A stretch of 64,000 nucleotides of DNA from Candidatus Giovannonibacteria bacterium RIFOXYD1_FULL_48_21 (GCA_001778985.1 MFIU01000004.1:67067-131066), one strand, 5' to 3'. Positions 39,218 through 59,333 are shown, numbered from the stretch's first letter. Program-made: numbers and translations. The notes: generated from the sequence alone by a model not told the origin.

Positions 39218-39407
39218 AATGGAGCCGATGGTCGGACTTGAACCGACAACCTATCGCTTATTCAGCCCGTTAGAAATCTACAGAGCCGGAGGCGAGATTC
39301 GAACTCGCGACCTTTGCTTTACGAAAGCACTGCTCTACCAACTGAGCTACTCCGGCATACATTTCTAACGGGCCGGGACGATTGCTCTGCCATTGAGCTA
39401 CATCGGC
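39218..39407 (-). tRNA. split or interrupted tRNA gene (intact D-arm, T-arm and acceptor, CCA encoded) carrying a ~128 nt insertion in the anticodon loop
   Basis: 5' half GCCGATG-TA-GCTC-AATGGCA-GAGC-A-ATCGT and 3' half GCGAT-AGGTT-GTCGG-TTCAAGT-CCGAC-CATCGGC-T-CCA. Between the two anticodon-stem strands lies CCCG-[GCCCGTTAGAAAT...ATTTCTAACGGGC]-TGAATAA, in which the 13 bp inverted repeats enclose a complete tRNA-Thr. Confidence 0.5.
39285..39356 (-). tRNA. tRNA-Thr(CGT), nested inside the interrupted tRNA
   Basis: GCCGGAG-TA-GCTC-AGTTGGTA-GAGC-A-GTGCT-TTCGTAA-AGCAA-AGGTC-GCGAG-TTCGAAT-CTCGC-CTCCGGC. A canonical 72-nt cloverleaf with U33, anticodon CGU and A37. Confidence 0.75.
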
Positions 39408-39413
39408 GATTAT

Positions 39414-39563
39414 TTAAATATAAGTATCTTCGCGCCGACGTTCGATTTTCAAGATAAATAAATTTCTTTTTTGATCACCAGCAGAAAGTTTCTTCAGTAT
39501 AATTTTTACCCTCTCGCGTTCTTTGGAAATCAGCTTCGAAAGCGCCTTTTCAATTCTGTCCAT
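39414..39563 (-). CDS. short ORF (~49 aa) downstream of a Phd/YefM antitoxin gene; candidate truncated toxin
   Basis: 'MDRIEKALSKLISKERERVKIILKKLSAGDQKRNLFILKIERRREDTYI'. Its start lies 6 nt after the antitoxin stop. Confidence 0.25.
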   Translation of the reverse strand: MDRIEKALSKLISKERERVKIILKKLSAGDQKRNLFILKIERRREDTYI

Positions 39564-39569
39564 GAAGCC

Positions 39570-39791
39570 TCAAATTCTAGCAAGGACTTCTCGCAGAGGA
39601 ATGCCTCCTTTTTTGATTTTCGTGAAATCTAACACGGTTTCCCAAAGCTCTGACTCCTCTTCCGGCGAGGAGATTTTAAATACCGGCCTCGAACGCCTTA
39701 CCACAATGAAAGAATCCCCTCTTTTCACGCGCTCAATGTAGCGTTCGGCATTTCCTCGAAGTTCTTTAAGCCCAATGACACTTTTAGCCAT
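39570..39791 (-). CDS. Phd/YefM-family type II antitoxin
   Basis: 'LKELRGNAERYIERVKRGDSFIVVRRSRPVFKI' matches the Phd/YefM fold signature. Confidence 0.65.
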   Translation of the reverse strand: MAKSVIGLKELRGNAERYIERVKRGDSFIVVRRSRPVFKISSPEEESELWETVLDFTKIKKGGIPLREVLARI

Positions 39792-40049
39792 AAAATAAGT
39801 TTATCTCAAGATAAACCTGGAGTCAATATTTAAAGTGGCGGAGGATCAAAAACACCCCGCAAACTTGCGGAGTGTTTTATTAAATACCAATCATCAGGCT
39901 CGGAACCATTTAGGAATAATGCAGACCTAGAAACAGTGCTTAGAGGAGAGAGATTTTTTCTCCATCCGCCATACAGCAATGAAGATATCTCACACTGCCG
40001 CCAGACCTGATCTTAAATGGCTCACGAGCCTGATAACGACTATTCAATT

Positions 40050-40076
40050 TTTTACTTCTAACCTCGTCTCGACCCA
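40050..40076 (+). repeat. repeat B (TTTTNCTTNTAACCTCGTCTCGACCC), copy 1 upstream of hicB; copy 2 at 41172-41199
   Basis: A ~25 nt near-identity. Copy 2 is followed by the complementary GGTCGAGGT and a CGCC-aga-GGCG hairpin. Confidence 0.5.
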
Positions 40077-40112
40077 TTGATTTTACGTCGGCAGCACACT
40101 ATCATAACCTAT

Positions 40113-40367
40113 ATGAACTCTTATACCTACCGAATAATAATAGAGCCGGATGAGAACAACACTTTTCACGCCTATGTTCCGGCGCTTCCTGGTTGCCATA
40201 CTTGGGGAGAAAGTTTTGAGGAAGCGCGTGGGAATATCCGCGATGCCATTGACGTTTACATCAGAAGCCTCACAAAAGACGGCGAGAAAATTCCTATAGA
40301 TCGCGGCGTAGAGATCGTGGAAACTATCTCTGCTTCCCGGCACAGAAAATCTTTTTCCCGTGTCTAA
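40113..40367 (+). CDS. hicB: HicB-family antitoxin
   Basis: 'YRIIIEPDENNTFHAYVPALPGCHTWGESFEEARGNIRDAIDVYI' (UPF0150/HicB RNase-H-like fold). Confidence 0.7.
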   Translation: MNSYTYRIIIEPDENNTFHAYVPALPGCHTWGESFEEARGNIRDAIDVYIRSLTKDGEKIPIDRGVEIVETISASRHRKSFSRV

Positions 40368-40593
40368 ACTTCCCCAGATTAAAGACCGGGAGTTGATCCG
40401 AGCGTTAAAGAAACTCGGATTTTTTGAGCATCCGGAACGCGGCAGTTCTCATTTGGTCTTTGCACATCAAGACGGAAGACGCGCCACCGTGTCTCGCCAT
40501 CCAGGCAAAAACATTCCCAGAGGCACTCTCCGCGCCATCATGCGCGACATCAATATTTCTCCTCAAGAATTCACCAGACTTTTGAAGCAGTAA
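40360..40593 (+). CDS. hicA: HicA-family toxin (mRNA interferase)
   Basis: 'ALKKLGFFEHPERGSSHLVFAHQDGRRATVSRHPGKNIPRGTLRAIMRDI'. Overlaps hicB by 8 nt. Confidence 0.7.
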   Translation: MSKLPQIKDRELIRALKKLGFFEHPERGSSHLVFAHQDGRRATVSRHPGKNIPRGTLRAIMRDINISPQEFTRLLKQ

Positions 40594-40614
40594 TTTTTCT
40601 CAAAGAACTCTCAG
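40592..40614 (+). repeat. repeat A (TAATTTTTCTCAAAGAACTNTC), copy 1, abutting the hicA stop codon; copy 2 at 41116-41138 abuts the DUF2283 stop
   Basis: A 22/23 nt identity between 40592-40614 and 41116-41138, each beginning at or next to a stop codon. Copy 1 is tandemly half-duplicated at 40626-40645. Confidence 0.5.
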
Positions 40615-40886
40615 AGTCCTCGAGATTTCTCAAGAACTCAATCGAGTGGGGGAAGATATTGAGTCCTCCCCCCTCTAAAGTTTGAGATTGATTTCCTTCA
40701 CTACACTGTTATATTATGGGTACAGGCATGGAAAGATTCAGCTCACCCTTTGGAATTATAGAACTGACTTCTGATTTTTTATTCACCTGTCCCGGGCAAG
40801 AAATATCTCGCCATAGTCGTAAAGATAAACCGCCGAAATTTTATCCTAACCGCTTACGTTACCAATAAAATTCAACATCTGCCGCT

Positions 40887-41114
40887 ATGAAACTCCATTA
40901 TTATTACGACCGAGAAGCAGACGTACTCTATTTCTCGCAAGGGAAGCCGTCCCGGAAAGACATCTCTGAAGAAGCGTCTGACGACGTGGTGCTTCGTCTT
41001 GACCCCAGAACCAAAAAGGTAAAAGGATTTACTATCCTCAATTTCGCCAAACGAGGCGCGAAGAAATACGCGCCGCTCTCGTTGCCTATCAAAGCCGAAC
41101 TCTTGCCGGCTTGA
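40887..41114 (+). CDS. DUF2283-family small protein
   Basis: 'YYYDREADVLYFSQGKP...' is the characteristic DUF2283 N-terminus. Confidence 0.5.
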   Translation: MKLHYYYDREADVLYFSQGKPSRKDISEEASDDVVLRLDPRTKKVKGFTILNFAKRGAKKYAPLSLPIKAELLPA

Positions 41115-41390
41115 CTTAATTTTTCTCAAAGAACTTTCGACTCGTTTTTGCGAATCGAGATGAGATTACAAGTTTTTGCTTTTAACCTCGTCTCGACCCG
41201 CCCGCCAGAGGCGGGTAAATAGGTCGAGGTCACTCATATATATTTTAAGATTCGCCTTGGAACTCTCTCCTCTAGAGTTGGAGAGAATTATGGAGATGAG
41301 TTCTTGAGTGAACCTGCGGGCCAATATATATTATTTGATTCCTCATTAAAAAGAAAATTCCGCGCGCGCCCACTTGTTGACTTTTCCTAA

Positions 41391-41464
41391 TGGTGCGGGA
41401 TACGAGAATTGAACTCGTGTCTCTTGCTTGGGAAGCAAGCATATTACCACTATACTAATCCCGC
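41391..41464 (-). tRNA. tRNA-Gly(CCC), CCA encoded
   Basis: Acceptor GCGGGAT/ATCCCGC, anticodon stem CTTGC/GCAAG with loop TTCCCAA, T-arm ACGAG-TTCAATT-CTCGT, discriminator A and CCA. Confidence 0.8.
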
Positions 41465-49321: not shown

Positions 49322-49343
49322 AACCCCGCATTCTGCGGGGTTG
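49322..49343. terminator. hairpin AACCCCGCA-ttct-GCGGGGTT shared by the HTH gene (+) and rnpB (-)
   Basis: A perfect 9 bp GC-rich stem. Confidence 0.55.
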
Positions 49344-49347
49344 ATTT

Positions 49348-49753
49348 AGATACGCCTATAAGCCGAATTCTGTCCTCCCGCTGAAAGCGGGATGTATGGT
49401 CATTTATCTCAGCCTCGCCTTACGGCGGGGCCTGAAGCGGCACTTCCCGCCTTCCTTTGAAAGTTTCAATGGTTGGCGGGACACGGCCTTGCACCAGGCA
49501 GGGTTTTCAACTCCGGCGTCTTGCGAGGTCGGAGCGTGCGCTCTTACCGCACGATTTCACCTTTGCTCTCTTGCCCTTTAGGGGAAAGAGGGCCGTATAT
49601 TTTCTGTTGCACTATCCGTCCCTGAAAGATTCCTCTTTCAAGGCGTGGGTGTTACCCACTGCCCACTTCTCATTTTTCAATGAGGGTGTTCGGACTTTCC
49701 TCCCCGCCTACGATTATTTTTAAATGTTGGCGGGGTGACCATCCGGCGTATCT
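49348..49753 (-). ncRNA. rnpB: RNase P RNA, bacterial type A
   Basis: Minus-strand matches to the conserved blocks GGCGGGGAGGAAAGTCCGAACACC, AGTGCAACAGAAAAT...CGGCC, AGGTGAAATCGTGCGGTAAGAGCGCACGC and GGACAGAATTCGGCTTATAGG (P4). P1 forms by pairing AGATACGCC (5') with GGCGTATCT (3'). Confidence 0.9.
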
Positions 49754-49854
49754 TGCAGTAATTATAGTCGAGAAATAATTTTTGTCAACTATTTATTTTA
49801 TTTTAAAAAATCCGGCGGATACCCAAGGGCATCCGCCGTTTAGAGAAACATTCA

Positions 49855-52184: not shown

Positions 52185-52988
52185 TCAAGCGGCGACATGT
52201 TTTTGAGCTTTGAAATCCGGCTCCCCTGAAACTCGCTTATGCCATTCGCTTTCATAGAATTCTTTAAGTATCGCTCCTGCCTCTCCCGCGTTTCTGCGCA
52301 CTTCAGGATTTTCTAAATGCTCGGGTAAAACTATGAAAGTTGGCTGGGGCGCTTCATACATACCGACATAGGGAATCCGCGGGTAGACTATCTTTTCTGC
52401 TCCGCCTCCTTCGGCTTCCCATTTCGCGAAATCATAGATTGCAATATCAGGATAGCCCTTATTGAGGCCTTGCAGAATCGACATCAAATCGAAACCCTGC
52501 GGTATTTTCCCATCTCTCTGGGCCTCCTCTAATCCTCGAACGGTGTCTTCGGTCCAGCGCATCAAACCTTCGAAGCCGGCTTTACTTTCGAACTTTGCCA
52601 CTCCTGGAATTTTGGTGGTTTTGCTTTTTCGCTCGTAACCTTTGAGATTCTCGACAGTAAGCATCTGAATTTTCTTGTCTTCGCTCTTCTCCACCTCTCC
52701 AACAAAACCAAGCTCAATCCCTTTCTCTTTAAGCAATGAATTGATTCTGGCTACTGACTCTTTCAGCTCTTCTTCGTCAGTAAAGGAGTGCCAAATCTCG
52801 GTATTGGGCTTAAAGCCGGCCATGGTTAAAACAACGCCCGGTTCAACAAAGTGGGCTCCAAATTCTCGGGGGATTTTTTCGTAAAGTTCCTCTGAGAGTC
52901 TGGCTACTTCCTTCCCAGAAAAAACCTCGGGAATTGCCTCGATTGATTCTGATCTAACTTCGGTAGGTTGGGGCAATTTCTCTGACAT
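52185..52988 (-). CDS. hypothetical protein
   Basis: 267 aa ORF, co-directional with ftsZ and 34 nt upstream of it. Confidence 0.45.
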   Translation of the reverse strand: MSEKLPQPTEVRSESIEAIPEVFSGKEVARLSEELYEKIPREFGAHFVEPGVVLTMAGFKPNTEIWHSFTDEEELKESVARINSLLKEKGIELGFVGEVEKSEDKKIQMLTVENLKGYERKSKTTKIPGVAKFESKAGFEGLMRWTEDTVRGLEEAQRDGKIPQGFDLMSILQGLNKGYPDIAIYDFAKWEAEGGGAEKIVYPRIPYVGMYEAPQPTFIVLPEHLENPEVRRNAGEAGAILKEFYESEWHKRVSGEPDFKAQKHVAA

Positions 52989-52989
52989 T

Positions 52990-53400
52990 TTAATTTAAAA
53001 TGGCCAAATCTTCTTTGATTCCTTTTTTGAGCGCTTCCAGTTCAGAGGCAGGGACAGAAAGAAGCGAGGCGAAAAATTCAACTCGCTCCGCATTTTCCAA
53101 ATGCGCATTTGCCAGAAGTTCTGCTACCTCCCTTCTTTTTCCCTCAAAAATGTAAACCTCAAAATTTCTCTTCCTCAACTCTTCCACCACAGCCCAGAAA
53201 TAATTTTCATTCCCCGGACCGATCTCTTCCTCGACCAAGAGGTCGTCTTCGTGCCTTAAAATCGAAATACGTTCCTCGATTAAAGTTTTTACCAAATCAT
53301 TCTTAGAAATATCCTCATCTTTAGAAATTTTCCCGAGGTACTCGCCGTCTTTTTTGAAGATGTAAGCGCTCTCCATTTTAGTATTCTTTTTCTCTAACAC
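52990..53400 (-). CDS. hypothetical protein
   Basis: 136 aa ORF. Confidence 0.4.
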   Translation of the reverse strand: MLEKKNTKMESAYIFKKDGEYLGKISKDEDISKNDLVKTLIEERISILRHEDDLLVEEEIGPGNENYFWAVVEELRKRNFEVYIFEGKRREVAELLANAHLENAERVEFFASLLSVPASELEALKKGIKEDLAILN

Positions 53401-54415
53401 CCTCGGGCTTGCTTTTTTGATTTTGCCGGCGTTCCAGTTCCGGAATATTGTATGCTGTTTCTTTGTCTAAATAATCTCTCACCAGCTCGCGGTCTTGACG
53501 CCCAAGCAAGATAGCACTCGCGGAGTTTGCCCTAACAATTTCCGCCCAGTATTCCGAGGCTTTCATTAATAATTCCTTCTTTTTATCCTCGTTGCGAATG
53601 GATTCAACATATCCCGAATAATATCTGTCTTCCGATTTAACTCTCTCCAATGTCCTGTGAAGCAAATCTACGCGCTCCGGCATTGAGCGGCGGCGATTCT
53701 TCCAGTCATTCGCGTGAGCGATTTCATGCCTGAAGCTTAAGGCAAAACTGCTTTCTTGCCAGCCGTCGGGATGCTTAAAAAAAGATAATACTGTTTCGTT
53801 GCCGGCACTACTATAAGAAGCTTGGCCAACGACATTGAGGTCAGATTTCAGCCCGTAATCTTTCCTGACTTTTCCAATTTGCTCTTCTCTATCAACGAAA
53901 TTGATTTCGTTGATACTTTCTATCCAAACATGCGGAAGTGCATCTAAAATAAAATTTATCGACCTGGGATTGATGCCCATTTGTTTTGCTCTCTCGGGTG
54001 ATATATTCGGGTAATTCAAAGTCTTGTCGTGGAAGTGTTCTTTTATTTTTTCACTTTCTCCTGCAATTCCAAAATTTCTGTCTAAGTTAGCGGCTCCAAT
54101 TTTCTCTTCGACTTTCTTTGCCTTTGCAACGGTTTGGAAAAGTTCTTTTCTTTCTTTTCCATCCATTTCCCCCTCCTTTGCGGCTTTATCGGCGCGTTTA
54201 ACGTATTCCGAAACTTTTATATCCTGGTGCAGCATTTCTTCCACGTTTTTCTTCGAAAACCCTACTTGTTCAGGCGCCGCCAGCACGCCTGAAAATGCCA
54301 TGGGCAGGACTGCAGCAGAAACAGCTTTTTTAAATCTCTCGCGGATGGACAAAACCGCCTTCTCTCTATCCTCGCTTCGAGGTTCTGGTTTTTCAAAAGA
54401 AAATTTTTCCGACAT
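53378..54415 (-). CDS. putative zinc metallopeptidase (HExxH)
   Basis: 'FALSFRHEIAHANDWKNRR' HEIAH motif and an N-terminal hydrophobic signal-like segment. Confidence 0.4.
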   Translation of the reverse strand: MSEKFSFEKPEPRSEDREKAVLSIRERFKKAVSAAVLPMAFSGVLAAPEQVGFSKKNVEEMLHQDIKVSEYVKRADKAAKEGEMDGKERKELFQTVAKAKKVEEKIGAANLDRNFGIAGESEKIKEHFHDKTLNYPNISPERAKQMGINPRSINFILDALPHVWIESINEINFVDREEQIGKVRKDYGLKSDLNVVGQASYSSAGNETVLSFFKHPDGWQESSFALSFRHEIAHANDWKNRRRSMPERVDLLHRTLERVKSEDRYYSGYVESIRNEDKKKELLMKASEYWAEIVRANSASAILLGRQDRELVRDYLDKETAYNIPELERRQNQKSKPEGVREKEY

Positions 54416-54420
54416 TGAAA

Positions 54421-54495
54421 TTAAATTCCTTTATGCCTCCTCCTAATCTCCTCCTCCACTTCTTCTCTGGGGCGGGTGAACTTGGAGCGGGAGTA
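54421..54495 (-). repeat. peptide-conserving 3'-end repeat, copy A (other copies at 55669-55770 and 56943-57016)
   Basis: Core TGCCTCCTCCT(A/T)ATCTCCTCCTCNACTTCTTCTCTGGGGCGG plus a flanking ...TTGGAGCGG. On the minus strand all three copies encode SRSK(F/Y)xRPREEVEEEIRRRH(K/H)(G/A). The nucleotide differences fall mostly on synonymous positions (GTG/GTT/GTC Val and ATT/ATA Ile). Confidence 0.7.
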
Positions 54496-54502
54496 TATAA
54501 AA

Positions 54503-54754
54503 TCATTTATAAATATCTTTTCGGTGGCCAACTTTCAAAATTATAATGCGGTCGCGTTCGACATCAAAAAGTGCCCGATAGTCCCCAATATGAAAACGCC
54601 GCTCGCCGAGGCGAGGGTCTTTCAGTTCTTCGGAGAATTTAAGCGGATCTATCGCGGCGGTGTAAAAATCGAATTTGGTTATGATCCGCCTTTGAACGAT
54701 TCTTGGGAGCTTTTTAAGATCTTTGAGAGCAGCAGGTTTAAAGAAATACTTCAT
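54503..54754 (-). CDS. relE: RelE/ParE-family type II toxin
   Basis: 'RFHIGDYRALFDVERDRIIILKVGHRKDIY' is the RelE/ParE C-terminal signature. Confidence 0.7.
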   Translation of the reverse strand: MKYFFKPAALKDLKKLPRIVQRRIITKFDFYTAAIDPLKFSEELKDPRLGERRFHIGDYRALFDVERDRIIILKVGHRKDIYK

Positions 54755-54975
54755 AACCGAAGAAGTCTCTTTACTTCAGCTGCGGAGTAAAGTTTTTTCT
54801 CTTTTCGGGCTTTTATAATTTCTTTTGGAAGAATGTTTGAATTTCTCATCTCCGTATCTTCCATCAAATCCTCCAGCTTTCTCCAATCCTCCAAGGGTAT
54901 CACTACCACCGGCTCGCCGCGAAAGCGAGTCTTCTCAATTTTTTTATCAATAGTAGCGAGGTTGCGATGGGCCAT
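54751..54975 (-). CDS. type II antitoxin (RelB/Phd-like), partner of relE
   Basis: A 74 aa ORF overlapping relE by 4 nt, with 'PVVVIPLEDWRKLEDL'. Confidence 0.55.
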   Translation of the reverse strand: MAHRNLATIDKKIEKTRFRGEPVVVIPLEDWRKLEDLMEDTEMRNSNILPKEIIKARKEKKLYSAAEVKRLLRL

Positions 54976-55073
54976 GTTCCAACTCTATTCTTCTCCTGCC
55001 CAAAAGTCAAAAATCAAAATGCGCGACCCTGAGGATCGTGCGACAAGAATGAACCCTTAATTTCTGAATATTT

Positions 55074-55628
55074 CTACCTCGTTTCCCTATATTTTTCCAT
55101 TATTTCTTCGGCGCTCTTAGAAATTTCGAGATCACCTTCGGCTGCTGCGGCTTGACCAAAACTTTTTATTCCTTCCTGTAAGCCCTCCGTTTCCGTATAC
55201 GCAAGCCAATTTTTAGGGTCTTTCTCTAAAGCTGATTGAGAATATCCCAAGAGCTCAGATGCAGTATCAATCCATTCTTTTGGGGTAAAAATTCCTTTTG
55301 GAATAGAAATAGATCCTCCGCCGAATGAAATAGAAGATTCCCATTCATCTTTTCGAGTTTCCTTGTTCCAAACCTGCTTATTAATTTGATATACGCCAGG
55401 ATTTGGTATCGCTACATGACGCTCCTTGCTAGCTCTTTGCATTACCTCCTTTAATTTTTCTCGCTTCTTCGTCAAAGCTAGATAACTGAACTGGGCATTT
55501 TCTCTTGCCTCCGCCATTCTAGTCTCATGATGCATCGCCTCCAATTCCTCTAGAGTCTTGTTAGGCTTATTCTCCAACTCATAGAGCCTTCTATTAGGAT
55601 CCTCAGAATTTGGTGTTTCAAATCCCAT
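55074..55628 (-). CDS. hypothetical protein
   Basis: 184 aa, Glu/Lys-rich. Confidence 0.4.
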   Translation of the reverse strand: MGFETPNSEDPNRRLYELENKPNKTLEELEAMHHETRMAEARENAQFSYLALTKKREKLKEVMQRASKERHVAIPNPGVYQINKQVWNKETRKDEWESSISFGGGSISIPKGIFTPKEWIDTASELLGYSQSALEKDPKNWLAYTETEGLQEGIKSFGQAAAAEGDLEISKSAEEIMEKYRETR

Positions 55629-55761
55629 ATTTTATGTTTATTAGTTTAATAAAATCCTCCTGCCTAAATTATATTGCTTTTTCTGGAGTCGCGCCAGCGT
55701 GGTGCCTCCTCCTAATCTCCTCCTCAACTTCTTCTCTGGGGCGGCCGTATTTGGAGCGGTC

Positions 55762-55989
55762 TCATAAATGTTTAGAAAATTCTCCGGGTGTCACTTCGAT
55801 CTCCCGCAGAATCTGCCGCAGGAGCCCGCGGCCGATATCTTCTCCGCCGTGCCTAGGAACCAAAGTGGTTCTGCCATCCGGATGTTTAAAAAAGATATGA
55901 GAACCAACTTGACGAAAACCTCTAAAGCCGAACTTCTCTAAAACGCGCATAACATCGCGCGCCTTTAGCATCGGCAAGCGGCCTTTCAT
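55762..55989 (-). CDS. hicA: HicA-family toxin
   Basis: 'VLEKFGFRGFRQVGSHIFFKHPDGRTTLVPRHGGEDIGRGLLRQIL'. Confidence 0.7.
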   Translation of the reverse strand: MKGRLPMLKARDVMRVLEKFGFRGFRQVGSHIFFKHPDGRTTLVPRHGGEDIGRGLLRQILREIEVTPGEFSKHL

Positions 55990-55993
55990 AAAT

Positions 55994-56248
55994 TTAAACG
56001 CTTACCAACTCCACTCCCACAAAGGATGGTTCATAAGCGAAGAGTTGAATTTTCTTTCGATATTGCGGGTCGGTCTTGGCGACAGAAAGGCAAAGCTTGA
56101 TTGCCTCGCGAACGCGCCTCCTTAGCTCTTCCAGGTCTTTGGCTTGGGTATGACAGCCCGGCAAAGCCGGAACAGAAGCCACAAAGTAGCCGTCTTCATC
56201 GCGTTCAATGAGGACTTTAAATTCTTTTGGTGATATTTCTCTAGCCAT
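55994..56248 (-). CDS. hicB: HicB-family antitoxin
   Basis: 'LIERDEDGYFVASVPALPGCHTQAKDLEELRRRVREAI'. Confidence 0.7.
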   Translation of the reverse strand: MAREISPKEFKVLIERDEDGYFVASVPALPGCHTQAKDLEELRRRVREAIKLCLSVAKTDPQYRKKIQLFAYEPSFVGVELVSV

Positions 56249-56328
56249 ATTTAGAGCCTATCACGTCCAAAGTCAAAAATCAAAATGCGCGACCAGTAAG
56301 CCGCGCATTTCTTGAAAATAAATCCAGC

Positions 56329-56904
56329 CTAAAAATCAAACTCTTTTTTCTGTTTCTCTTGTGCTTCTTTTTCCAACCTTTCCCTCTTTTTGGTTATGGC
56401 CTTCCAGATTTCTTCTAACGCCTCGCTGTCTTGTTGGTCATTCCTATTAAACTTGTTAAAGTTTAATTTCAGAAGATCTTCTGTCACCTTATTTCTTAAT
56501 TTATCTTTTAATTCAAAATTATAGCCTTGCGCGGGCTGCGGAACATTTTTATAAGCAGAAATTTTTGATGCATCCAGCTTTACTTTCGCAACATTTCCGT
56601 CTCTATCTACATAATAGAAGTCATTCAGTAACCCAAAAGAGCTATCATATTTTCCTTTCATGCCTTCCAATTTCTTTTTTAAGTCCCCCGACATTTCTGG
56701 GTCCTCTAACGAAAGAAAGAACTGTTTATTCATTTTTATATACGTCCCCAAGTCGGCCACCATCTCTCCCTTTTCAAGACGCTCTCGAAGATTCTCGCGT
56801 TCCTCTTTTGTGCCAATAATAACAGCGGCGTTTTCTTCCCAGCCTTCTTTATTGATATCGGCTTTGGCTTGTTCAAATTCAGAATCTGGTTGTTCTTGGC
56901 CCAT
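56329..56904 (-). CDS. hypothetical protein
   Basis: 191 aa, acidic/Lys-rich. Confidence 0.4.
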   Translation of the reverse strand: MGQEQPDSEFEQAKADINKEGWEENAAVIIGTKEERENLRERLEKGEMVADLGTYIKMNKQFFLSLEDPEMSGDLKKKLEGMKGKYDSSFGLLNDFYYVDRDGNVAKVKLDASKISAYKNVPQPAQGYNFELKDKLRNKVTEDLLKLNFNKFNRNDQQDSEALEEIWKAITKKRERLEKEAQEKQKKEFDF

Positions 56905-56942
56905 AACCGTATCTTACAATATCGAACAAAGGATGCAAATGT

Positions 56943-59333
56943 TTATCCACCTTTATGCCTCCTCCTTATCTCCTCCTCGACTTCTTCTCTGGGGCGGCTG
57001 TACTTTGAACGGGAGAGCTGCTTAATATAATCGGCCATCTGGGGGTTGCCGGTTTCGGGCGGAATGGTTTTTATATTGAAAGGTTTTGAAGTCTGCCCGT
57101 CAATCAATAATTTTAGATAGGCGTTATAGTTATCGATATTCAGCAAGTCGTGGGCAGAGAATACGGGTTGAAACTGCTTCTCCATATACTCGCCGTCGTC
57201 CGAGCCGATTCTGAAGGAACAAATAGAACCGACGTTTCCAAAGACCGCTTTCTGAATCTCTTCCTCGAGCTGTCCGATGAACTGGTGAGTTAAAATGAGG
57301 TTCAATTTATACTTTCTCGCTTCGGAAAGTATGGTCGCGATGGACTTAGTTGTGACGTTTTGGAACTCATCGATATAAAGGTAAAAATCGGGACGTTGGG
57401 ATTCGTCAACGTTTACTCTGGATAGCGCGGCCATCAAAATTTTACCAACCATAATTAGCCCGAGGAGCGACGAGTTAAGCTCGCCTAGGCGCCCCTTGGA
57501 AAGATTCAACAGCAAAATCTTTTTATTATCCATCACCTCGCGGATATTGAAGGCGGATTTCTCCTGCGCGATGATTGGGCGCATTATTTCGTTTGCAAGA
57601 AATGTGTCGAATTTCGAGACCACATAAGGCACCATGTTCTGCAAAGCGGCCTCGCCGCCGGCTTTCTCGGCAATCTGTTTCCAGAAGGTCTCAACCACGA
57701 TATTTTTCGAGCGGGAAAGTTTGTAGTCGCGAAAGGATTTATCCGCCAAAACGCGCTCAATCTCCAAAAGGGTGTTCCCTGACTCCGGATCGTCCATCAC
57801 CAGCAAAGCGGCATTCCTGAAATACTGCTCGAACATCGGGCCTCCGGCGACTGACATATTGAAAAGCTTGTTGAAGATTTCCAAAAGCTCGTTCACTATC
57901 ATGGTTTTCTGCTCCGGACGCGCCGCATCATACTCCAGCATGTTAAGCCCCATGGGATATTGAACGTCTCCGGGGTCAAAATAAATCACGTCCTCGGCGC
58001 GCTCGCGCGGGACGAGCGCTAAAATTTTTTCGATAAGCTCTCCGTGCGGGTCAATCACCGCGACTCCCTCGCCCGCTCGTATATCCTGAATAATCATGTT
58101 CTGCATTAAGACTGATTTTCCGGTTCCGGTCTGGCCGATGGTATAAAAATGCCTGCGCCGGTCGTCTTTTTTAATCCTTACTTCCTGGGAAGTTCCGCGA
58201 AAAGCGCTCCTGCCGACTAAAATTCCCTCCTTTGGAAGATTTACGGGCGGGGCCGCCTCTCGGGCTTTTAGCATCCGCACCTGGGGTGCGGCTTTCTTGG
58301 AATACGGAAAATGATAAATGCTTGCGATTTCCTCCACGTTGAGCGGTATCGCCGTATCTTCATCAAAAAACCTGAAAGAAAAATCTTCATTTAACTTGCG
58401 AAGCCTACTTCCAAAAACGTTCCGGATTTTGAATGAATTTCCCTCGGGACTCGAGAATTGATAAAAACCGGCTTCAAATTCTTTCATAATTCGATCGGTT
58501 TCTGCGTCTGATCCGGCAGAAACAATGAGGCGAACATTCGCGTCGAAAATCATCTTGCCTGCTTTCTCCTCCAGTATCTTTACAAGCTCCTCATCGTAGA
58601 CTACGGGTTTGTTTTTTTCCTCGGGCCTCTGGCTTTTCGGTTTTTTGAAAATTTCAATTGTTTCTTCCGCCAAACTTTTTTCTCCCAGAACCTCTTTTCT
58701 TGATTTCCCCTGCTTTAACTTCTCCGTAACGCTATGTATCGACTTTTCGAGCTTTTCTGCTGAAGGCCGCAGTACAAGCTGTAGGGCGGCTCCTTCGTCG
58801 AACTCGTCAATCTTCGAGAAAGCAGAGGTTATAGTTTCAACAGGATCTGACTCTATTTTTTGATAAGTTTTCAAAGGCAGGAATTTATTTTTTTCAAGTT
58901 CCAGAATCGCACCGCGGGATATTCCGTCCGGATTAAAAATGTTGTAATCGTTTACTTTGTCTATTTTGGCTTCCGGAAATGCGCCATGCAGCTGGCCCTC
59001 GACGAGTTTTTCGAATTTTCGTGGTGCGGCCACATAAAAAAATATCTCCGCTCCGTTATTGTGCGCCGCGAGCTCCAGGGCAAAACTTTTATTCTTCATT
59101 CCGCCAAAGCCCATCAAAAACTTTTCCATCTGGGCGATGAAATTTTTTCTGGCTTCATTTGGGTTTTCCTTACCTTCCTCGCGGCTTTCCGGAACGCTCA
59201 CCAAGAAAAGCTGAAGCGAAAGGCTCGAAGATATGGCGCTTGTTCTCTTGTAGCGTAAATAAAAAAAGAGAATTACTAAAATGGGGACGAGGAGAACAAA
59301 GAAAGTCGTGAAAATAAAGGCGCCGTCATTCAT
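56943..59333 (-). CDS. membrane-anchored FtsK/TraG/VirD4-superfamily P-loop ATPase (type IV coupling-protein-like)
   Basis: An N-terminal TM helix, Walker A 'YTIGQTGTGKSVLM', Walker B 'FYLYIDEFQNV' about 275 aa downstream (T4CP-like spacing) and 'DPHGE'. Its last ~22 aa are encoded by repeat copy C. Confidence 0.6.
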   Translation of the reverse strand: MNDGAFIFTTFFVLLVPILVILFFYLRYKRTSAISSSLSLQLFLVSVPESREEGKENPNEARKNFIAQMEKFLMGFGGMKNKSFALELAAHNNGAEIFFYVAAPRKFEKLVEGQLHGAFPEAKIDKVNDYNIFNPDGISRGAILELEKNKFLPLKTYQKIESDPVETITSAFSKIDEFDEGAALQLVLRPSAEKLEKSIHSVTEKLKQGKSRKEVLGEKSLAEETIEIFKKPKSQRPEEKNKPVVYDEELVKILEEKAGKMIFDANVRLIVSAGSDAETDRIMKEFEAGFYQFSSPEGNSFKIRNVFGSRLRKLNEDFSFRFFDEDTAIPLNVEEIASIYHFPYSKKAAPQVRMLKAREAAPPVNLPKEGILVGRSAFRGTSQEVRIKKDDRRRHFYTIGQTGTGKSVLMQNMIIQDIRAGEGVAVIDPHGELIEKILALVPRERAEDVIYFDPGDVQYPMGLNMLEYDAARPEQKTMIVNELLEIFNKLFNMSVAGGPMFEQYFRNAALLVMDDPESGNTLLEIERVLADKSFRDYKLSRSKNIVVETFWKQIAEKAGGEAALQNMVPYVVSKFDTFLANEIMRPIIAQEKSAFNIREVMDNKKILLLNLSKGRLGELNSSLLGLIMVGKILMAALSRVNVDESQRPDFYLYIDEFQNVTTKSIATILSEARKYKLNLILTHQFIGQLEEEIQKAVFGNVGSICSFRIGSDDGEYMEKQFQPVFSAHDLLNIDNYNAYLKLLIDGQTSKPFNIKTIPPETGNPQMADYIKQLSRSKYSRPREEVEEEIRRRHKGG

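Follow-up and report, generated by a model that had tools for sequence, protein, structure and literature searches.

Repeated 3′ ends of a T4CP-like ATPase gene beside toxin–antitoxin cassettes in Candidatus Giovannonibacteria: probable displaced gene ends

Introduction

The mobile DNA and the genome plasticity of Candidate Phyla Radiation bacteria are poorly understood. Here, we describe a gene array within a 64,000-nucleotide (nt) stretch of DNA (the window, in which positions are counted from the first letter) of Candidatus Giovannonibacteria bacterium RIFOXYD1_FULL_48_21 (GCA_001778985.1, MFIU01000004.1:67067-131066), a member of the Parcubacteria within that radiation, from the Rifle aquifer. 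A short sequence occurs three times in this array: once as the end of a gene for a VirD4/TrwB-like ATPase that resembles type IV coupling proteins (T4CPs), and once behind each of two toxin genes. Read along the minus strand, the genes run ftsA, a 132-amino acid (aa) open reading frame (ORF), the ATPase gene with repeat copy C at its end, a 191-aa ORF, a terminator overlapping a 26-nt repeat, hicB, hicA, and copy B. They continue with a 184-aa ORF, a second 26-nt repeat, a relB-like gene, relE/parE, copy A, three ORFs of 345, 136, and 267 aa, and ftsZ. We call the repeated sequence the tail, and a copy that stands outside an ATPase gene an orphan. It is probable, in our judgment, that the repeat comprises the 3′ terminus of the ATPase gene itself (copy C) and two displaced ends (copies A and B), which lie at cassettes that recombined into the locus.

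Three tail copies are conserved as a peptide

We detected three direct copies of the tail, 66 nt long in register, on the gene (minus) strand at positions 54428-54493 (A), 55697-55762 (B), and 56950-57015 (C). Copies B and C are 82% and 91% identical to copy A, respectively (range 82-91%), and the starts of successive copies lie 1269 and 1253 nt apart. A pattern for the 27-nt core has three exact matches in the 64-kb window against 0.00 expected (100 shuffles), which bears out the three repeats reported in a first-pass annotation of this DNA. The encoded peptide on the gene strand is LSRSKYxRPREEVEEEIRRRH. Copy C, which reads SRSKYSRPREEVEEEIRRRHKGG and then a stop, supplies the 22 codons that close the gene for the 796-aa ATPase. 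Copy B lies beyond the hicA TGA, in frame with hicA, and has lost 3 nt, with a shifted stop, and copy A is in the +1 frame relative to relE. These frames had been assigned correctly before, as had the translations of the copies.

The differences among the copies are biased toward synonymous change. Pairs of copies differ at 5 to 7 of 57 core positions, and the 19-codon core common to all three holds seven synonymous and three non-synonymous events, where 20% synonymous would be expected (binomial P ~8e-4). The non-synonymous changes sit at two positions that are also variable in ATPase homologues. The first-pass annotation had noted this bias and had read it as selection on the peptide. The bias is real, and selection on the peptide is the right reading of it, but the target is the ATPase rather than fusions of the tail to toxins.

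The tail is the native end of the ATPase

We find that LSRxKYxRPREEVExEI, followed by a few variable residues, forms the end of nearly all full-length homologues of the ATPase (best 120 of at least 6471 with E<=1e-20). The window protein itself is 100% identical to a Candidatus Giovannonibacteria protein. It matches the Pfam families TrwB_AAD_bind (37.8 bits, cut-off 20.5), T4SS-DNA_transf, and DUF87, the first two above cut-off. Its N-terminal membrane anchor (helix 3-38 in an AlphaFold2 (AF2) model) and its TrwB-type P-loop ATPase domain are those of a T4CP. Homologues of T4CPs are abundant in Patescibacteria, where they lie mostly away from virB4 and have no assigned function; 148 of 5,713 were near virB4 (PMC12102498).

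The AF2 model, which was built on a 75-sequence alignment, has a mean predicted local distance difference test score (pLDDT) of 85.7. In it, the last 35 residues of the ATPase form two helices, at residues 764-778 (pLDDT 94) and 782-794 (pLDDT 89). The tail is thus predicted to be a structured terminal element of the ATPase, not a flexible tag. To describe constraint on the native tail, we gathered 107 unique ATPase ends with a pattern that leaves synonymous sites free. Their third positions are near maximum entropy, with bit values of about 1 (Glu), 1.9 (Val and Pro), and 2.3 (Arg). The native tail is therefore constrained as a peptide only, and there is no family-wide DNA or RNA motif.

Some orphans match ATPase ends of other genomes

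In related genomes (loci are given L numbers), orphans can be compared with ATPase ends that are still in service. The orphan of L055 and the ATPase end in service in L135 disagree at 2 of 54 nt, and the sequence 3′ of the orphan, GGTTCGTAATCCAC…TTGAC.CGTTGGGGGG…GATGGAGG.ATGAG, aligns with the flanks 3′ of the ATPase gene in L002 and L135. The L055 orphan is therefore a former ATPase end, still joined to its former downstream region. In L137, the distal orphan adjoins rpsS; it has 3 mismatches over 57 nt to the L135 ATPase end, itself located just upstream of rpsS, and 10 to the ATPase end of its own genome. Judging by these alignments, the 3.5 kb between the ATPase gene and the distal orphan in L137 looks like an insertion that has separated the body of the gene from its ancestral end. 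This stretch contains a small ORF, three toxin–antitoxin pairs, relBE, a tail, another small ORF, and hicBA. In the window, copy B ends in RRRHHAGAT, similar to the extended terminus of the L001 ATPase, RIRHAGAS, and copy A is closest, over the longest stretch, to the L121 orphan.

Several orphans are damaged. The L090 orphan has an 11-nt deletion and an Arg-to-Cys change; the middle orphan of L137 has the same Arg-to-Cys change along with a 5′ truncation, and the distal orphan of L137 has lost its stop codon. The L055 orphan is truncated at its 5′ end. At the same time, tails within one genome share private variants. A GAA codon (AGAGAAGAAGT) is common to the three window copies, where all related tails have GAG, and the nearest neighbors of copy C are copies A and B. 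A private GAA is likewise common to both tails of L055. These shared codons indicate that the tail copies of one genome have probably undergone exchange.

Cassettes combine an acidic ORF with a toxin–antitoxin operon

The features of the window array are listed in Table 1. Each cassette consists of a small acidic ORF, a terminator/promoter repeat, and then hicBA or relBE, in units of ~1.25-1.26 kb. The two units have only the tail and the 26-nt repeat in common; their ORFs are unrelated and their toxin–antitoxin families differ, and on these grounds we reject a tandem duplication followed by divergence.

Table 1. Features of the cassette array, in the direction of transcription
Feature	Position	Strand	Basis
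VirD4/TrwB-like (T4CP-like) ATPase, 796 aa, N-terminal membrane helix	56943..59333	-	Pfam
Copy C, native ATPase 3′ end, LSRSKYSRPREEVEEEIRRRHKGG and stop	56948..57017	-	sequence repeat and homologue ends; AF2 helices
191-aa acidic ORF, first gene of cassette 2	56329..56904	-	no Pfam/PADLOC match
Terminator hairpin (56282-56311) overlapping 26-nt exact repeat (56269-56294), ending in -35-like TTGACT before hicB	56269..56311	-	
hicB antitoxin	55994..56248	-	Pfam HicB_lk_antitox, 1e-07
hicA toxin	55762..55989	-	Pfam HicA_toxin, 7.5e-21
Copy B, probable orphan ATPase 3′ end, DRSKYGRPREEVEEEIRRRHHAGATPEKAI and stop, directly after hicA TGA	55672..55761 (homologous core 55699-55761)	-	
184-aa acidic ORF, first gene of cassette 1	55074..55628	-	no Pfam/PADLOC match
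Second 26-nt repeat copy (55003-55028) and promoter-like TTGACT-17-TAGAGT (54982-55010) before relB-like gene	54982..55028	-	
relB-like antitoxin, 74 aa	54751..54975	-	4-nt overlap with toxin start; no Pfam match
RelE/ParE-family toxin, 83 aa	54503..54754	-	Pfam ParE_toxin, 1.4e-12
Copy A, probable orphan ATPase 3′ end, SRSKFTRPREEVEEEIRRRHKGI and stop, +1 frame relative to relE	54424..54493	-	
345-aa ORF, conserved downstream neighbor closing the array	53378..54415	-	homologues after toxin–antitoxin pair in L001, L002

Both toxin–antitoxin pairs of the array have type II organization, in which small antitoxin and toxin genes lie side by side and carry family domains, except that the relB-like partner has no Pfam match. 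Genes like this relB lie beside relE in L001, L055, and L121 (tblastn).

The exact 26-nt repeat, GGTCGCGCATTTTGATTTTTGACTTT, stands upstream of both antitoxin genes. Before hicB, it makes up the 3′ arm and the U-tract of a strong terminator hairpin (z = -3.9). The repeat is the local version of an element, R2, which consists of a hairpin followed by GTTTGACTTT and precedes each toxin–antitoxin operon of the related arrays, whatever the family. In some cases, an identical promoter region reaches as far as the start codon (ATG) of antitoxin genes that are unrelated, relB in L121 and L055 and vapB in L090. Each toxin–antitoxin operon has its own -35/-10-like element within or after R2.

The small acidic ORFs that follow tails are almost unalignable with each other and have no Pfam match, and no match to a defense family was found for them with PADLOC. 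Their N-termini are nonetheless alike: MGQEQPDSE, MGFETPNSE, MSEKLPQPTE, MSREMPTPEE, MSNEMPSPEE, and MSEKMPTPED, with the motif M-[SG]-x-E-x-P-x-[PS]-E. ORFs with such an N-terminus are the 191-, 184-, and 345-aa ORFs of Table 1 and a further ORF at 52185-52988 (minus strand) in the window, together with ORFs in L055, L090, L103, L137, and L002. The acidic ORFs could be a fast-evolving family that is functionally tied to the ATPase.

Elsewhere in the window, a second islet of toxin–antitoxin-like genes occupies positions 39360-41390, between tRNA-Thr (39283-39356) and tRNA-Gly (41391-41464). From reading of the sequence, it is assigned a Phd/YefM-like ORF (39570-39791, minus strand), a second hicB/hicA pair (40077-40367 and 40360-40593, plus strand), and a DUF2283-like ORF (40887-41114, plus strand). 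The islet has no tail repeat. The window also contains five tRNA genes and a bacterial class A RNase P RNA (49343-49754, minus strand, 189 bits).

Similar arrays occur in related lineages

We found 24 contigs, from separate samples and different pipelines (ENA, JGI), that have an identical ATPase and essentially the same neighboring genes. Across 13 species-representative loci, there is one tail each. The closest of these 13, L001 and L002 (ATPase 78-79% identical), have the same ftsA-ftsZ synteny, and they carry one or two small ORFs and a RelE-type toxin–antitoxin pair downstream of the ATPase gene, ahead of their homologue of the 345-aa ORF.

A metagenome scan for ATPase loci yielded at least 118 loci. 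Second tails were counted in the 87 loci whose sequence continues past the ATPase end for at least 1.5 kb, the 13 genome loci included. Among the matches listed, three of the 87 have a second tail (L055, L121, and L090), all of them in the clade nearest to the window. Further arrays are present in L103 and in L137, the latter with three tails. Five other Giovannonibacteria lineages therefore hold the same kind of array, with different toxin–antitoxin families. The relatives differ in cassette content, and no exact empty site was found among them. Every orphan closely follows a toxin gene, or what is left of one: relE in L055 and L137, hicA in L121, L137, and L103, and a DUF433/DUF5615 pair in L090. 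The relE gene before the orphan is a pseudogene in both L055 (5236-5484, minus strand, with an internal stop) and L137 (4776-5026, plus strand, with a frameshift); the adjoining relB genes are intact.

The module of 132-aa ORF, ATPase gene, and cassette array lies between ftsA and ftsZ in the window, L001, L002, and L055. In the sister lineages L121, L135, L136, and L137, it lies within a ribosomal-protein cluster, between rplL and rpsS. Therefore, either the module moved as a whole or the genes around it were rearranged.

HicA proteins that share 70-80% identity with that of the window array occur at unrelated sites in many Parcubacteria, often on very short contigs (P0122-P0241; L138-L145). 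This distribution suggests that hicBA may be a highly mobile module in Parcubacteria. The tail is not an intrinsic part of such a mobile hicBA cassette, a possibility that we reject because it is absent from five other hicBA contexts (seven loci, L138-L145).

A model for the displacement of gene ends

We propose that recombination is concentrated downstream of the ATPase gene, up to the 345-aa gene, and that small cassettes accumulate in this hot spot. Incoming DNA, made up of an ATPase end, a small ORF, and a toxin–antitoxin operon, would recombine at the 3′ end of the resident ATPase gene. The imported tail would become the working C-terminus, while the previous end would be pushed downstream and stay as an orphan directly after the toxin gene. 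Repetition of this process would stack cassettes, with the oldest tail furthest from the ATPase gene. The join would involve homologous recombination anchored in the ATPase gene or the tails at one end, and an illegitimate or short-homology join at the other.

On this model, every tail would have acquired its differences while serving in a functional ATPase gene, which would give them their bias toward synonymous change. Orphans would go on looking coding for a time through gene conversion or crossing-over among the copies, and possibly through re-fusion by tail-to-tail crossover, and would later decay as in L090 and L137. A toxin–antitoxin pair located between direct repeats would penalize deletion of the cassette by repeat-to-repeat recombination, and this penalty would account for the constant position of orphans after toxin genes.

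If this model is right, DNA inserts recurrently at the end of this near-universal T4CP-like ATPase gene, with no recombinase in sight, and the site fills with toxin–antitoxin cassettes and fast-evolving small proteins. The model would also mean that a non-coding relic can mimic selection at the protein level, since its substitution pattern is inherited from the source gene and periodically refreshed. This calls for caution where signals resembling dN/dS are used to call small ORFs, readthrough products, or frameshift products in metagenomes.

Counterevidence and rival explanations

Several observations weigh against displacement as we have described it. No recombinase domain was found with Pfam in the cassette ORFs (191 and 184 aa) or in the toxin–antitoxin genes, and a crude motif scan for tyrosine-recombinase boxes, covering every large ORF in the window, gave nothing convincing. 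No circular form, empty site, or variant in cassette number was seen among the 24 contigs, which have essentially the same arrangement. L001 and L002 carry a toxin–antitoxin cassette without an orphan tail. Comparisons between orphans are synonymous-biased, with a ratio of 6:0 synonymous to non-synonymous differences between copy A and the L121 orphan, and the “KFT” variant shared by these two orphans is in none of the sampled ATPases. Both observations fit gene conversion or a repeated return to service, and they leave room for selection on orphans as stand-by ends. In addition, orphan starts fall within ~10 nt of one another. The start is identical to the base (toxin TAA|ACTCTCCCGCTCC) for the orphans that follow the hicA genes of L121 and L137 and for the one after the unrelated DUF5615 toxin gene of L090. 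An exactly shared start is not predicted by random illegitimate joins; together with the constant R2, it is better fitted by a site-specific system.

Such a system would make the tails attachment sites of dedicated cassette machinery, integron-like or akin to a mobilized integrative element, with a recombinase elsewhere in the genome that would both integrate and remove toxin–antitoxin cassettes at a core near the 5′ edge of the tail. Besides the common orphan boundary, this would account for varied toxin–antitoxin families between a constant left handle (R2) and a constant right handle (the tail), for cassettes of ~1.25 kb that have no recombinase of their own, and for two split tails broken at GCTCCAA (L121 and L103). 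The L121 split is, however, equally well a plain deletion relative to L137. We also considered CTCCAA as a core duplicated on either side of inserts; the copy upstream of hicB in L137 is probably a variant -10 region. No integrase is seen beside the array or in the 64-kb window by Pfam or by the crude motif scan, the tails are neither palindromic nor structured like attC, the cassettes have their own promoters, and the same hicBA family is tail-less elsewhere. A degenerate tail pattern had 0 matches in viral contigs, which yields no phage or plasmid attP candidate, and the 24 contigs show no population variation. On balance, we regard a dedicated site-specific system as unlikely. Somewhat more doubtful still is a locus for cassette switching, in which tails would be working recombination handles and the ATPase gene an “expression site,” or in which the 5′ edge of the tail would be the core for a site-specific recombinase. 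If that were true, the acidic ORFs could be clients of the ATPase, and tail-to-tail recombination would set which ORF lies directly behind it. Toxin–antitoxin pairs would then penalize the loss of stored cassettes, and orphans would be kept intact by selection, each needing to serve as the ATPase end after a switch.

The other rivals concern what the repeat does where it stands. It might be a regulatory element in DNA or RNA, such as a Shine-Dalgarno (SD)-like loading tract, a terminator, or a target for antisense RNA: the tract GGAGGAGGAGATTAGGAGGAGG has several SD-like motifs, and each copy precedes a gene. That this purine tract lies immediately upstream of the following gene, as the first-pass annotation held, is not what we find. 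The next start codons are ~20, 76, and 53 nt from its end (345-, 184-, and 191-aa ORFs, respectively), and relatives encode the same peptide with non-SD codons (e.g., GAGGAAGAAATTAGAAGAAGG in L121). Synonymous sites are free across the family, the tails have no RNA structure beyond that of shuffles (z = +1.0, -0.1, and -0.3), and no promoter, terminator, or Rfam family matched them, which makes a regulatory role very unlikely. Translation of the orphans is extremely unlikely, whether as an extension of the toxin by readthrough or +1 frameshift or as a tag for export or partner binding. The frames of copies B and A relative to hicA and relE would suit it, as would the peptide-level conservation that extends to orphans. 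Across seven toxin-to-orphan junctions, however, the frame is 0 (window B, L055), +1 (window A, L121, L090, and L137 distal), or -1 (L137 middle), and in L103 a spacer of ~100 nt separates hicA from the tail. The junction sequences also differ, with neither a conserved frame nor a conserved recoding context. These data do not support the earlier suggestion of a recoding target. The parallel suggestion of a C-terminal tag shared by ATPase and toxins is not supported either, because the motif is the native ATPase end, modeled as a structured pair of terminal helices; because close hicA homologues (72-80% identical) at other genomic sites have no tail; and because orphans are truncated, frameshifted, or stopless in L055, L090, and L137, where relE pseudogenes also precede those of L055 and L137. 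Finally, a metagenome assembly artefact, with chimeric joins at repeats, has a negligible probability. The source is a metagenome-assembled genome and assemblers can be misled by repeats, but the 24 contigs agree across samples and pipelines, the copies differ too much from each other to be collapsed duplicates, and analogous arrays were found in unrelated data sets.

Displaced gene ends thus remain our preferred explanation. Of the three readings offered by the first-pass annotation, only the last survives: its cassette-boundary recombination module, which happens to retain coding potential, is supported, and it is essentially the conclusion reached here.

Comparison with known systems

Integron arrays resemble the window in their ordered small cassettes and in a recurring boundary right after the stop of the last gene of a cassette. 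Toxin–antitoxin cassettes are described as common in sedentary chromosomal integrons and as likely stabilizers of the arrays (PMC13108822, PMC11551772). An integron has IntI with attI beside the array, whereas the window array has the ATPase gene on one side and the 345-aa ORF on the other, without a recombinase match. An attC is an imperfect inverted repeat that folds into a hairpin and is conserved in structure rather than in sequence; the window tails fold no better than shuffles, are conserved in sequence, and are coding. Integron cassettes are mostly promoterless, while each toxin–antitoxin operon of the window has its own promoter-like element.

The pdif modules of Acinetobacter plasmids are small, often contain toxin–antitoxin pairs, encode no recombinase, and are delimited by short sites that recur. 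These sites are inverted repeats that bind XerC/D, a symmetry that the window tail lacks. In contact-dependent inhibition (CDI) and Rhs systems, orphan cdiA-CT/cdiI and Rhs-CT modules carry fragments of the upstream gene, repeated before variable modules and usable as handles for homologous recombination. There, the fragment lies upstream of a variable toxin domain and recombination alters the main protein. In the window, what is repeated is the terminus of the gene together with its stop codon, and recombination would leave the ATPase nearly unchanged, altering only what follows.

The icd gene of Escherichia coli, at the site of e14 (and of phage 21), offers a likeness in the event itself: as we propose for the window, mobile DNA sits at the 3′ terminus of a conserved gene and provides that gene with a new end. 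The old end persists farther downstream as a C-terminal pseudogene, icdC, whose differences from icd are mainly synonymous or conservative, and excision of e14 re-fuses icdC to icd (PMC13626634). The e14 type has its own integrase beside the att site, whereas none was found with the window cassettes by Pfam or the crude motif scan. The window inserts also differ in being ~1.25 kb rather than prophages and in being stacked in tandem; the repeated piece is only ~66-75 nt, and no excision was observed. What the two have in common are direct repeats, formed by a working end and a displaced pseudo-end, that flank the insert, and some orphans of our arrays correspond to ATPase ends, with their flanks, in other genomes. 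By analogy with icdC, which is returned to icd when e14 excises, a tail-to-tail crossover would return an orphan to service.

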